Shown here piece by piece: positions 55,857 through 57,457 of a stretch of 64,000 nucleotides of DNA. The translations under genes were made by a program, and so were the position numbers. The stretch comes from Parcubacteria group bacterium (lineage in GTDB: Bacteria > Patescibacteriota > Minisyncoccia > Phycocordibacterales > CALRHW01), in the NCBI GenBank assembly GCA_943359555.1, contig CALRHW010000001.1:2718-66717 (forward strand), written 5' to 3'. Under the pieces are notes generated by a model. It was given only the letters and a program-made list of their open reading frames with translations, searched no databases and was not told the DNA's origin. Within the stretch, counting starts at the first letter, position 1. Each line of letters opens with the position of its first letter.

Positions 55857-56549
55857 TTACCACCCCTTTTTTTCAAGTCCTTTTCTTGCCGCCTCTTGTT
55901 CTGCGTCTTGTTTTGATTCACCTTCGCCAGAAGCTACGAGATTTTTACCGAGATATACGCCCACGGTAAATCTTTTATCATGGTCTGGTCCAGTTTCTTT
56001 TGTTGTTTTATAGGCAGGGGTAGTGCTTTCCCTTTCCTGCGCTTTTTCTTGAAATAAACTTTTTGAATCTATCCAAGTGCCTTTTGAAATAATGTCCCCG
56101 ATAAGTGGCGAAATATTTTTGTAAATGAATTCTTTTACAACCTCATATCCTTGGTCTACATAAATAGCGCCGATTATTGCTTCAAGTGTGTTTGCTAAAA
56201 TATATTGTCGTGCGCGACCAGTATCTTTCATTTCTCCGCGAGATAAAAGTAAAAAGTCATTTACAAAAAGAGACGTCGCCACGCGCGCGCAAGTCGTCGC
56301 GTTTACAAGTGCACTGCGGAAGCTCGTCATCTGACCTTCATTTGATCCAGGGTATTCTTTGTATAAATAATCTGTAATTACAAGCTCCAGCACCGCATCA
56401 CCTAAAAATTCCAAGCGTTCGTTGTGTTCAAGTCCAGAGTCTTTGTTTTCATTTATATATGAACGATGAACAAACGCTTGTTTCAGTAGCGTTTTGTCGC
56501 GGAATTTTAATCCAGCTTTTTCTTCAAATTTTGAGAAGTTTATGTTCAT
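55857..56549 (-). CDS. rnc: ribonuclease III
   Basis: ERLEFLGDAVL signature and a C-terminal dsRBD. Confidence 0.9.
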   Translation of the reverse strand: MNINFSKFEEKAGLKFRDKTLLKQAFVHRSYINENKDSGLEHNERLEFLGDAVLELVITDYLYKEYPGSNEGQMTSFRSALVNATTCARVATSLFVNDFLLLSRGEMKDTGRARQYILANTLEAIIGAIYVDQGYEVVKEFIYKNISPLIGDIISKGTWIDSKSLFQEKAQERESTTPAYKTTKETGPDHDKRFTVGVYLGKNLVASGEGESKQDAEQEAARKGLEKKGW

Positions 56550-57457
56550 TTCGCGTCTTTGGTGTCCCCAAGTAGTATGTTTATAGCCTTGGTTATAGTC
56601 GGCAGAATATCATTATAAAAATTAAGGTCAAGTATGTCGGCAAGTTTAAACCAACGCACATCATCTAGTCCACCGCTTTCTTTTAATTTTATTTCTTCAA
56701 ATTTTGACTCGGCAAGGTAGTAATGCACCTGCTTTTTTATCTTCCCTTTCTCTGGATCAAAAGCGATATATGCATTATTACCGAGTTCTTCTTTTACATT
56801 TATATTGAGTCCGAGCTCGTCTTTTATAACACGTTTTATTCCAGCTATATCTTCTTCTCCTTCTTCAAAATGACCCTTTGAAAGTGTCCAATGTCCGAAA
56901 ACATCGTGCACAAGAGCGAGATAAATGTCATCGCCATCTTTTCCAAAAACGACAGCTCCTCCGAGTTTTTCTATCGGCGCTTGGTCATCTGGAATGTCTG
57001 GATGACGCTTTCTTTTTGAAGTCTCGTCTTTACCCGGCTCGCCCATTTCTTTATATACCGCACCGAGGACGCCGTTTACAAACTTTCCACTCGTATCCCC
57101 ACCAAAAGTCTTTGCAAGCTCAATTGCCTCGTTTATAGCCACTTTTGGGGGCACTTCTTTTCTGTCAGCAAAAAGAAGCTCGTAAAGTCCAATGCGCAAA
57201 ATGTTGCGGTCAATAATAGAAATTTTATCAATTGGCCAATCTGGCGCAGCTTTTTCTATAATCACGTCCAAATCCTTTTTCTTTGCAACGACATTCTTCA
57301 TCAAGTTTTCCATGAATGCCAAATCACCCGTTCCAGTAGCAAACTCTGAAGCGTTGCGTTCAAAAATATCCATAGCCTCCTTAGCACTTTTTTTATTGAA
57401 ATCCCATTCAAAAAGTGATTGTGTGACTATTGATCTTGATAAATGCCTGTTTGCCAT
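56546..57457 (-). CDS. nusB: NusB-like antitermination domain fused to a C-terminal Nudix hydrolase domain
   Basis: NusB core ([28 protein letters not shown]), then a Nudix box [23 protein letters not shown]. Confidence 0.7.
   Translation of the reverse strand: [303 protein letters not shown]

Follow-up and report, generated by a model that had tools for sequence, protein, structure and literature searches.

The open reading frame at 56546 to 57457 on the minus strand of the window (i.e., the whole 64-kb stretch of DNA that was analyzed), here called nusB::nudix, almost certainly encodes a fusion of the transcription antitermination factor NusB to a Nudix domain of the NUDT2 type. The connection between the two halves is ancient, and the sequences indicate that the Nudix half has kept a pocket for nucleotides or polyphosphates while selection on its hallmark catalytic residues has been released. 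With a probability of roughly 0.45, we favor the reading in which the Nudix half serves as a binding module on NusB and is no longer an efficient free hydrolase. NusB is among the most conserved bacterial transcription factors, and to our knowledge, it is a small single-domain protein in every studied organism. Among uncultured bacteria, a radiation that is both abundant and very large thus uses a two-domain NusB, in which the added domain derives from hydrolases of Ap4A and of RNA 5′-polyphosphate ends and in which the gene is locked beside that of RNase III. Databases name these proteins only "NusB" or "transcription antitermination factor NusB," a label that hides the second domain, and our literature search found no published description of a NusB-Nudix fusion or of NusB in CPR bacteria.

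Gene and domain organization

In both the open reading frame listing and the sequence, nusB::nudix begins with ATG, encodes 303 amino acids followed by a TGA stop codon, and contains no internal stop codon; the assignment is further backed by both Pfam domains and by homologs. The downstream neighbor is rnc (55857 to 56549, minus strand), which encodes RNase III as identified by Pfam Ribonuclease_3 and dsrm and by TIGR02191 (252.8 bits; cutoff, 166). The upstream neighbor is rpmF (57560 to 57781, minus strand), which was assigned to ribosomal protein L32 by Pfam Ribosomal_L32p and synteny. The TGA of nusB::nudix and the ATG of rnc overlap by four nucleotides, read as ATGA at 56546 to 56549 on the minus strand, and the two genes are likely to be translationally coupled through this overlap. 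The nusB gene is found next to ribH/thiL in E. coli and next to folD in Bacillus, whereas its neighbors here are rpmF and rnc. A gene for RNase R/II is located near the nusB::nudix-rnc locus. Neither an rRNA operon nor a second NusB-like or Nudix open reading frame was found within the 64-kb window. The E. coli boxA consensus has 39 matches in the window versus 44 expected by chance, i.e., it is not enriched, and none of the matches close to nusB::nudix is informative.

The N-terminal half (residues 1 to 138; 57044 to 57457, minus strand) is a bona fide NusB. Pfam NusB (PF01029) matches residues 7 to 136 (E = 6.5e-34; 117.6 bits against a cutoff of 23.1), the TIGR01951 nusB equivalog model scores 128 bits (trusted cutoff, 88.35), and NusB entries in the PDB match residues 1 to 138 with E values of 1e-19 to 1e-13. 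The AlphaFold2 (AF2) model of this half is all helical, with helices running from residues 2 to 20 through to residues 104 to 138 and high pLDDT throughout, and in Foldseek it matches Aquifex NusB (3r2c/3r2d; TMt = 0.86, RMSD = 2.1 Å) and 1eyv (TMt = 0.84). NusB from E. coli aligns with it from end to end, and the positions that we take to be the NusE contacts of NusB (Y18, E75, and E81) correspond in this alignment to F16, D77, and D83, respectively. The profile and the all-helical fold are those of NusB from E. coli and Aquifex aeolicus, as seen in the NusB-NusE-boxA structures (3D3B and 3R2C) and in the rrnTAC complex (6TQN/6TQO), and the C-terminal signature ..G....KFVNGVL is likewise shared. 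On the other hand, the characterized NusB proteins are without the 165-residue C-terminal extension, comprising linker and Nudix domain, that is found here. The product of nusB::nudix is best explained as the NusB of this lineage, i.e., as the putative component of the rRNA antitermination complex that binds S10 and boxA.

The linker between the domains (residues 139 to 159; 56981 to 57043, minus strand) consists of a GEPGK motif (residues 139 to 143), a Lys/Arg patch (KRKR), and an acidic, proline-containing stretch, in this order. Across relatives, it varies from 22 to 32 amino acids with a mean pairwise identity of 0.51. In a set of 81 sequences, Glu140, Pro141, and Gly142 are present in 81 of 81 and Lys143 in 79 of 81, and Gly142 is near-invariant in a 65-sequence set as well; this conservation of GEPGK suggests that the connection between the halves is constrained. 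In the AF2 model, two well-folded domains are joined by a disordered linker (pLDDT below 50 at residues 141 to 151), with no fixed packing between the domains (pTM = 0.48).

The C-terminal half (residues 160 to 303; 56549 to 56980, minus strand) is matched by Pfam NUDIX (PF00293) at residues 168 to 281 (E = 2.4e-10; 41 bits; cutoff, 21.1), so that the NusB and NUDIX matches both exceed their gathering scores. The PDB sequences matched are CT771 (1.9e-6), NUDT2 (5e-6), and the Caenorhabditis elegans Ap4A hydrolase (2e-4). Many Nudix structures are recovered by Foldseek at a probability of 1.00, the best being Rv2985 (4e-9), the Aquifex Ap4A hydrolase aq_158 (TMt = 0.85), Ndx1, CT771, and NUDT2. 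By sequence and fold, this half belongs with the NUDT2-type ApnA hydrolases and is only distantly related to RppH.

Spread and conservation of the fusion

The fused form is widespread, with at least 443 matches in species-representative genomes. The top 120 homologs are all about 300 amino acids long and nearly all contain both Pfam domains, and every relative with a named source comes from Patescibacteria. All 80 of the genome loci inspected align as one segment, from query residue 1 to about residue 296, in one continuous frame, and the same continuity is seen in 31 of 31 metagenome loci with intact upstream DNA, which come from independent assemblies. Synteny is conserved over the 80 loci; the rnc gene adjoins nusB::nudix in all of them and also in divergent members, and the gene string rpmF-nusB::nudix-rnc-smc is kept even in the most divergent member. 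The halves are still fused in a divergent member whose Nudix half is about 28% identical, and no fission of the halves was seen in any locus checked, across deep divergence. The alignments show that the fusion arose long ago and has been maintained throughout a large lineage of Patescibacteria (Paceibacterota/Parcubacteria). Mean pairwise identity is 0.71 in the NusB half and 0.62 in the Nudix half, and ω is 0.03 to 0.15 over both halves (approximately 0.05 to 0.15 in the Nudix half); these ω values are rough, with dS near saturation, and show both halves to be evidently under strong purifying selection.

An artifact of assembly, frameshift, or gene calling that joins two genes finds no support and is practically eliminated by the 80 genome loci and 31 metagenome loci described above. 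Some database entries of about 140 to 170 amino acids begin at the domain boundary with "MPIE...." P0131, the one such entry tested, points to fragments at contig edges and not to split genes in relatives: related metagenome loci have an in-frame nusB upstream wherever upstream DNA exists, and 3 of the 5 loci without complete upstream sequence end at a contig edge inside nusB. No true fission was found among them. Of the 81 orthologs, 34 have a Met at position 160, where the domains meet, and the nusB::nudix of the window has none there.

These results bear on a first-pass annotation made from the window sequence, which had proposed a NusB-Nudix fusion in a single frame, with no start signal between the halves and a 4-nucleotide overlap with rnc. 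All of this stands, and both halves pass the profile searches (Pfam and TIGR01951) and the fold searches. Its suggestion that resequencing might reveal a frameshift is set aside by the continuous loci, and the comparison of fused with separate genes that it proposed gave fusion throughout the loci inspected. The architecture, which it regarded as nonstandard, is indeed absent from model organisms; within the large Patescibacteria lineage, however, NusB normally takes this form.

The Nudix pocket and its catalytic residues

The segment leading into the Nudix box, GHWTLSKG, aligns with HHWTPPKG of NUDT2. More than 20 residues of the Nudix half are invariant, and those invariant in all 81 sequences include His184, Asp185, Trp190, Thr191, Lys194, Asn228, Tyr230, Lys242, Tyr246, Trp269, Tyr281, and Asp283. 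The HW..KG motif, Tyr230, Lys242, Trp269, Tyr281, and an invariant Glu214 together show, at the level of sequence, that a predicted pocket for a nucleotide or polyphosphate is kept. Residue equivalences of this kind are sequence alignments, and two of them conflict on the adenine-stacking Tyr (Tyr82 of NUDT2), which falls on the invariant Tyr230 in a family-informed alignment and on the variable Phe233 in a pairwise HMMER alignment; both residues are aromatic in the protein of the window. The pairwise alignment had suggested a loss of the ApnA-specific Tyr, an idea that was dropped once the family-informed alignment set Tyr230 on Tyr82.

The Nudix box (residues 195 to 217; 56807 to 56875, minus strand), which aligns column for column with that of NUDT2, reads G195-HFEEG-E201-EDIAGIK-R209-V210-I-K-D213-E214-L-G216-L. 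The complete box GX5EX7REUXEEXGU is not present, in that the Glu of "RE" is replaced by Val210 (codon GTT at 56828 to 56830, minus strand) and the first Glu of "EE" by Asp213. By alignment, Val210 occupies the position of Glu58 in NUDT2, and by the box numbering of the literature, also that of Glu53 in E. coli RppH. The E58A variant of NUDT2 is inactive on PPP-RNA, on whose 5′ ends the wild-type enzyme acts much as RppH does, and the E53A variant of RppH is inactive as well. The out-of-box Glu is also missing, since Gly263 aligns with Glu110 of NUDT2 and Glu114 of CT771, and Gly is found at this position in nearly all fused members.

Among 268 fused sequences, position 210 is occupied by Glu in 85 (32%), Val in 81, Lys in 35, Ala in 26, Gly in 16, and Ile in 12, and the residue switches among these six between close relatives. 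At least 24 changes are counted at this position on an 81-taxon tree, versus 0 at Glu214. The other four canonical positions of the box (Glu201, Arg209, Glu213 or Asp, and Glu214) are mostly conserved, and the full five-residue E-R-E-E-E set is kept in 68 of the 268 fused sequences (25%). The canonical box is present in 12 of 13 distant stand-alone relatives. These frequencies show an apparent release of selection on hallmark catalytic residues, and because the relaxation occurs in the fused forms and not in the stand-alone relatives, it goes with the fusion and not with the clade. With Val210 at the position of an essential Glu, and with this position free to vary in the family, efficient hydrolysis is doubtful.

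The first-pass annotation had described two conservative deviations from the box, a description that fits the change from Glu to Asp at position 213 but not that from the "RE" Glu to Val210. It had also pointed to NudC- or RppH-like subfamilies and to hydrolysis of NAD caps or alarmones. NudC is absent from the NCBIfam and Pfam matches at E ≤ 1, the SQPWPFPxS motif is absent from the translated sequence, and the N-terminal domain is NusB rather than a Zn-binding domain. The RppH profile NF001936 gives a weak match (19.1 bits; cutoff, 118). Alarmone hydrolysis finds no profile or motif support.

Proposed function and related systems

We propose that NusB is permanently joined, through a flexible linker of about 20 residues, to a Nudix module of NUDT2-type descent that would bind an adenine-nucleotide polyphosphate (Ap4A/Np4N or ATP) or a 5′-triphosphate or Np4-capped RNA end. 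At the NusB-S10-boxA complex, which promotes cotranscriptional processing by RNase III, such a module may hold on to, or sense, either the nascent pre-rRNA 5′ end or a nucleotide signal. In orthologs with a complete box (about 25%), slow turnover of a cis-held substrate is possible. That fraction, and the conservation of most box positions, count against a pure binding module, and it is quite possible that Asp265 and Asp266 stand in for the missing out-of-box Glu and sustain residual or noncanonical hydrolysis. Generic binding of the RNA backbone through a basic domain, which was also considered, is disfavored by the pI of about 5 of the Nudix half, which is acidic like the enzymes. The most specific form of the proposal, in which NusB of Paceibacterota would carry a catalytically attenuated sensor or tether derived from an Ap4A hydrolase, would read the pre-rRNA 5′ end (triphosphate or Np4 cap) or an Ap4A/Np4N stress signal, and would couple it to NusB-S10-boxA assembly and RNase III processing, is rather improbable in all its parts.

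The module could instead be an active tethered hydrolase that strips Np4 caps or 5′ γ/β phosphates from nascent RNA, including pre-rRNA, or clears Ap4A locally, and we give this idea a real, if minority, chance of being correct. Its substrate would be presented in cis near the boxA complex, so that slow chemistry would be enough and one metal ligand would be free to vary. The nearest relatives are all active ApnA hydrolases, with which the module shares its acidity, and the activity of NUDT2 on PPP-RNA offers a suitable reaction; moreover, Glu214 is invariant, Glu201, Arg209, Glu213 or Asp, and Asp265/Asp266 are largely kept, and a quarter of the members have the complete box. The adjacent rnc, the nearby RNase R/II gene, and an RNase E/G protein whose Nudix domain belongs to this clade would also suit an enzyme acting on RNA. 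What weighs against it is that the residue mutated in the dead NUDT2 and RppH variants is the very one that is Val here and variable in close relatives, that the out-of-box Glu is replaced by Gly almost throughout, and that the stand-alone relatives are without this relaxation.

A fusion of neighboring genes by genome streamlining, in which nusB became joined to the gene of a housekeeping Ap4A hydrolase while the halves remained independent or the Nudix half began to decay, is unlikely. The genomes of Patescibacteria are small and compact, with overlapping genes such as the ATGA shared with rnc, the linker is disordered with no predicted packing between the domains, and the Met that some orthologs have at position 160 may be left over from a former start codon. 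Uncoupled halves, however, would leave the absence of fission despite deep divergence and the nearly invariant GEPGK motif unaccounted for. They would also fail to explain why the Nudix half is conserved so strongly and in such a pattern; its ω and invariant residues are not those of a decaying domain. The confinement of the catalytic relaxation to the fused form further suggests that the function changed after the fusion, rather than that a housekeeping enzyme went on unaltered.

Known systems offer parallels for parts of this arrangement. The asymmetric Ap4A/ApnA hydrolases (human NUDT2, the C. elegans enzyme, Chlamydia CT771, Aquifex aq_158, Mycobacterium tuberculosis Rv2985, and Thermus thermophilus Ndx1) share the HW(T)xxKG motif and counterparts of Lys242, Tyr246, and Trp269, and in the family-informed alignment their adenine-stacking Tyr, 17 residues past the box, coincides with Tyr230; they differ in that Glu58 and Glu110 of NUDT2 and the first Glu of "EE" are replaced here by Val210, Gly263, and Asp, respectively, and the NusB fusion and the relaxed catalytic positions occur only here. 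RppH (E. coli NudH and Bdellovibrio BdRppH, the latter at rank 49 among the Foldseek matches) belongs to the same broad group of Nudix proteins related to ApnA hydrolases and acts on RNA 5′ ends, but it is a stand-alone enzyme and the equivalent of its catalytic Glu53 is missing here. The closest functional analogue of a binding module would be CFIm25 (NUDT21), a Nudix-fold subunit of an RNA-processing machine that lacks two box glutamates and binds Ap4A (Kd = 2.4 μM), ATP, and RNA without hydrolysis; the module on NusB would resemble it in binding a ligand that it does not cleave. CFIm25 is a eukaryotic dimer that recognizes UGUA RNA and belongs to another Nudix family (PF13869), to which the Nudix half has no specific sequence relationship, and the box glutamates are lost only in part here. 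Set against noncatalytic Nudix modules of the CFIm25, NrtR, and DBC1 kind, the Nudix half has the fold and a box that is partly degenerate and under relaxed selection, which makes it a candidate for such a module, and the Nudix domains of NrtR and AraR are among the Foldseek matches.

For the combination of domains, a precedent is RsmB/Sun, in which a NusB-like N-terminal domain is fused to an rRNA m5C methyltransferase, i.e., an RNA-binding module of NusB fold joined to an enzyme-type domain that acts on rRNA. RsmB models match residues of approximately 37 to 145 weakly. The NusB-like domain of RsmB is a diverged paralogue in genomes that have a separate NusB, whereas the N-terminal half here scores as a NusB equivalog. 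Dcp2 has the same layout, in that a hinge connects a helical domain for partner binding to a Nudix domain that works at RNA 5′ ends; its Foldseek alignment covers about 270 columns but with an RMSD of about 15 Å, the helical domains are unrelated, and the Dcp2 box is complete and active, which makes this an analogy of layout only.

If the module binds or processes 5′ ends or senses dinucleotide polyphosphates, it would form a new physical link from transcript 5′-end chemistry or nucleotide stress to the transcription and maturation of rRNA, and it would be a natural case of an enzyme turning into a binding module. As a sensor, it would provide a direct nucleotide or 5′-end input into rRNA synthesis of a kind undescribed in any bacterium. 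Nudix domains are also carried by the RNase E/G proteins P0236 and P0387, the latter with 46% identity and a Pfam Nudix-family match; this architecture is real but rare.

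Gene organization and domain architecture

The gene for the fused protein (nusB::nudix) is a single reading frame at 56546..57457 on the (-) strand, which begins with ATG and runs through 303 codons with no internal stop, as the first-pass annotation had described. Its TGA stop and the ATG of the next gene overlap in the sequence ATGA (56546..56549, (-)), and this next gene is rnc, encoding RNase III (TIGR02191, 252.8 bits), which bears out the 4-nt overlap. The two halves also proved to be what they had been called: Pfam places NusB at residues 7-136 (E = 6.5e-34) and NUDIX at residues 168-281 (E = 2.4e-10), both above the gathering scores, and TIGR01951, the NCBIfam equivalog model of nusB, has a cutoff of 88.35 bits, which the protein passes with 128. 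The N-terminal half is a NusB by both profile and fold, with Aquifex NusB from the NusB-NusE-boxA complex found in the fold search (TMt 0.86).

AlphaFold2, run with 65 orthologues, gave a model of mean pLDDT 83.5 in which residues 1-138 are all-helical, residues 141-151 are disordered (pLDDT <50), and residues ~160-303 take an alpha/beta form; the pTM is only 0.48, and a fixed inter-domain packing is therefore not predicted. Across relatives the linker spans 22-32 residues and is otherwise variable and disordered, with a GEPGK motif at its head (residues 139-143; 57029..57043, (-)) in which Glu140, Pro141, and Gly142 are present in 81/81 sequences and Lys143 in 79/81. A K/R-rich patch comes next, and GEPGK might be a short linear motif that a partner recognizes. 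The mean pairwise identity is 0.71 in the NusB half, 0.51 in the linker, and 0.62 in the Nudix half. Both halves are under purifying selection, with Nei-Gojobori dN/dS values of 0.03-0.15 among the six closest sequences, which are rough because dS is near saturation.

The upstream neighbor is rpmF (L32); further out, one side carries RNase HII and DnaE, and the other a short SMC, an RNB-family exoribonuclease, S16, KhpA, and TrmD. The region is rich in RNA-processing genes (RNase III, RNase HII, RNB exoribonuclease, KhpA, TrmD, and S16), and the RNB-family 3'-5' exoribonuclease (RNase R/II-like, with CSD, RNB, and S1 domains) is at 50874..52829 (+), ~4 kb from the nusB::nudix-rnc pair. The smc gene beside rnc (53437..55788, (-)) encodes 783 aa, against a prokaryotic SMC profile of 1181 positions; TIGR02168 gives 485.7 bits, under its cutoff of 567, in a match split into two stretches, and no SMC_hinge Pfam match is found in it at 1e-5. 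This length is kept in most of the 80 relatives (alignment q1-783), and the lineage may typically have an SMC that is shortened or hinge-poor. The S16 frame (50254..50880, (-); 208 aa) has its domain at residues 37-95 only, and the KhpA-like KH protein (49785..50204, (-); 139 aa) has its KH domain at 42-113; either the mechanically assigned start codons (TTG in both) were placed too far 5', or the two proteins are extended. A lone tRNA at 10631..10703 (-) is the sole Rfam match at gathering threshold across the 64-kb window, where no rRNA, leader, or riboswitch family was detected by Rfam and no rRNA operon is present.

Distribution and reality of the fusion

Against 5.8 billion clustered proteins the search gave more than 8000 matches, and the closest 120, which were inspected, are all ~300 aa long with 66-99% identity, nearly all with both Pfam domains. 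Where these 120 entries are named, the sources are Patescibacteria, Paceibacterota, Parcubacteria, or Minisyncoccia MAGs, and the product name is only 'transcription antitermination factor NusB'. Scanning one genome per GTDB species gave at least 443 confirmed matches, the best 80 loci of which include Taylor-, Zambryski-, Kaiser-, and Wolfebacteria according to record titles, many of which are blanket labels (e.g., 'uncultured Candidatus Saccharibacteria' on TPA assemblies). A single alignment segment from residue 1 to ~296 was obtained in all 80 loci, which share the order dnaE / rnhB / rpmF / nusB::nudix / rnc / smc, so that nusB::nudix is locked beside rnc.

Searching 1.84 billion representatives exhaustively by HMMER, with only the Nudix half as the query, gave 143 matches at E<=1e-10; the NusB N-terminus is present in 59 of the 150 best matches, among which identity in the Nudix half falls as low as ~28%. 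Some database entries of ~140-170 aa start exactly at the domain boundary ('MPIE...') and resemble split genes. Among 36 metagenome loci related to one such entry (P0131), nusB lies upstream in frame, in one ORF of ~294-331 codons, in all 31 that have upstream DNA, while the remaining 5 end at a contig edge, 3 of them within nusB. Because the loci with upstream DNA are all fused and the others are cut by the contig, the short entries are fragments, and no genuine fission of nusB and nudix was found among the 80 genome loci or these 36 metagenome loci. The most divergent fused member examined, P0238, keeps rpmF - fusion - rnc - smc with different outer flanks, and its 35-40%-identical relatives are all fused. 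The fusion is real: relatives compared for fused versus separate genes, as the first-pass annotation had proposed, are fused in 80/80 genome loci and 31/31 loci with upstream DNA, and a frameshift or artefact origin is refuted since the frame is continuous in these loci, synteny is kept, divergent members are fused, and the short entries are fragments.

At alignment position 160, the first Nudix residue, Met ('MPIE...') occurs in 34/81 orthologues (the 80 loci and the window) and Ala in the window. This Met could go back to the start codon of a Nudix gene that was once separate, or could act in some species as an internal start giving a free Nudix domain.

Ancestry and catalytic residues of the Nudix domain

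The best solved sequence relatives of residues 150-303 are Chlamydia CT771 (1.9e-6) and human NUDT2, an Ap4A hydrolase (5e-6), followed by Rv2985/MutT1, Caenorhabditis elegans Ap4A hydrolase, Thermus Ndx1, and Aquifex Ap4A hydrolase. The top fold matches are the same diadenosine-polyphosphate hydrolases (Rv2985, 4e-9; Aquifex aq_158, TMt 0.85), with non-catalytic NrtR/AraR Nudix domains and BdRppH further down the list. The Nudix half is a superfamily member with NUDT2-like ApnA hydrolases as its nearest kin, and it descends from that clade. The NAD-cap (NudC) and alarmone ideas raised earlier are without support because NCBIfam gives no NudC match in nusB::nudix and only sub-threshold MutT1 and RppH matches.

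The Nudix box reads G195-HFEEG-E201-EDIAGIK-R209-V210-I-K-D213-E214-L-G216-L. It had been credited with two conservative deviations; the change of Glu to Asp at 213 is indeed conservative, but Val210 (codon GTT, 56828..56830, (-)), in place of the 'RE' glutamate, is a non-conservative one. In a family-informed alignment that includes NUDT2 and CT771 fragments and is purely sequence-based, Gly195, Glu201, Arg209, Val210, Asp213, and Glu214 correspond to Gly43, Glu49, Arg57, Glu58, Glu61, and Glu62 of NUDT2, and Tyr230, Lys242, and Trp269 of the pocket to Tyr82, Lys89, and Trp116. NUDT2 E58A is the inactive control in a PPP-RNA study. By box numbering, we take Glu53 of Escherichia coli RppH to be the same position as 210. 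RppH E53A is a standard catalytically dead allele (PMC6061791).

Among 268 non-identical fused sequences, position 210 is E in 85, V in 81, K in 35, A in 26, G in 16, and I in 12; the complete E201-R209-E210-E213-E214 set is present in 68 (25%) and Glu214 in 260. A canonical REUxEE(T)G box occurs in 12/13 distant stand-alone relatives (<=35% identity). When 81 close orthologues were placed on a neighbor-joining tree, at least 24 changes fell at position 210, which ranks it in the top quartile of all sites, and none fell at Glu214, His184, Asp185, Trp190, Lys194, Asn228, Tyr230, Lys242, Trp269, Tyr281, or Asp283. A second residue of catalytic type, the out-of-box Glu (Glu110 in NUDT2, Glu114 in CT771, and kept in most stand-alone relatives), is missing in fused proteins, where its position is Gly263 (46/51 fused representatives and 81/81 close orthologues); the conserved Asp265/Asp266 nearby might substitute for it. 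The adenine-stacking Tyr lies '17 residues after the box' (PMC2425470), and its counterpart is the invariant Tyr230 in the family alignment versus the variable Phe233 in a pairwise HMMER alignment; Tyr230 is favored as the likely counterpart, following the family alignment. Precisely the positions at which mutation inactivates related enzymes have been freed from selection, and this loss of constraint goes with the fused state. Since the domain lacks the catalytic features that define such enzymes, a complete box and the out-of-box Glu, it is not classed as an Ap4A hydrolase, RppH, or NudC.

Possible function of the Nudix domain

In a large Patescibacteria lineage this protein is the NusB equivalog, stably fused to a Nudix domain derived from an ApnA hydrolase, and in evolutionary terms its Nudix half is functional. 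We infer that the common function of this domain is probably not efficient hydrolysis. The most conserved residues are those of the nucleotide/polyphosphate pocket, and the most economical reading is therefore that the Nudix half may be a tethered binding module on NusB, to which we tentatively assign a probability of roughly 0.45. Such a module would bind an adenine-nucleotide polyphosphate (Ap4A/Np4N or ATP) or, alternatively, a 5'-PPP or Np4-capped RNA end; a 5'-end- or nucleotide-binding appendage on NusB, with translational coupling to RNase III, would fit co-transcriptional RNase III processing. CFIm25, a Nudix protein without two box glutamates that is a subunit of an RNA-processing complex, binds Ap4A at 2.4 uM and does not hydrolyse it (PMC2425470), and is by analogy a direct precedent for a putative non-hydrolysing binder of this kind.

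The main rival, which we judge somewhat less likely, is a slow hydrolase that works in cis, with the tethered transcript end or Np4N as its substrate; this reading draws on the invariant Glu214, on the mostly conserved Glu201, Arg209, and Glu/Asp213, on the quarter of members with a complete box, and on the acidity of the domain (pI ~5), which is like that of its enzyme relatives. A functionally uncoupled fusion produced by streamlining is unlikely, as it leaves both the patterned conservation and the conserved linker motif unexplained.

In layout and working, the protein resembles RsmB (an rRNA enzyme joined to a NusB-like domain), Dcp2 (a helical domain and a Nudix domain on a hinge), and the non-catalytic CFIm25, although the kinship is not close in any case. 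Hundreds of these sequences are already in public databases, where both Pfam domains are precomputed but NusB is the only name given, and our full-text literature search found no paper on a NusB-Nudix fusion or on NusB in CPR bacteria. This architecture of a core transcription factor is real, lineage-wide, and uncharacterised, and it bears a signature of enzyme-to-binder drift; it is not a categorically new system.

Other proteins, encoded outside the window, carry related Nudix domains. A small clade of RNase E/G proteins with a C-terminal Nudix domain, from ENA metagenome contigs, is another RNA-machinery fusion of such a domain: that of P0236 (1074 aa) falls in one clade with the NusB-fused domain (E = 3e-13), its box being likewise degenerate (R-T..G-E), and P0387 (1167 aa; 46% identity to P0236 over 98% of its length) has a CFIm25-type NUDIX_2 match. 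P0206 (379 aa) combines sigma-70 region 4, a DnaA C-terminal helix-turn-helix, and a same-clade Nudix domain with a canonical box, and is a possible Nudix-type transcription regulator.
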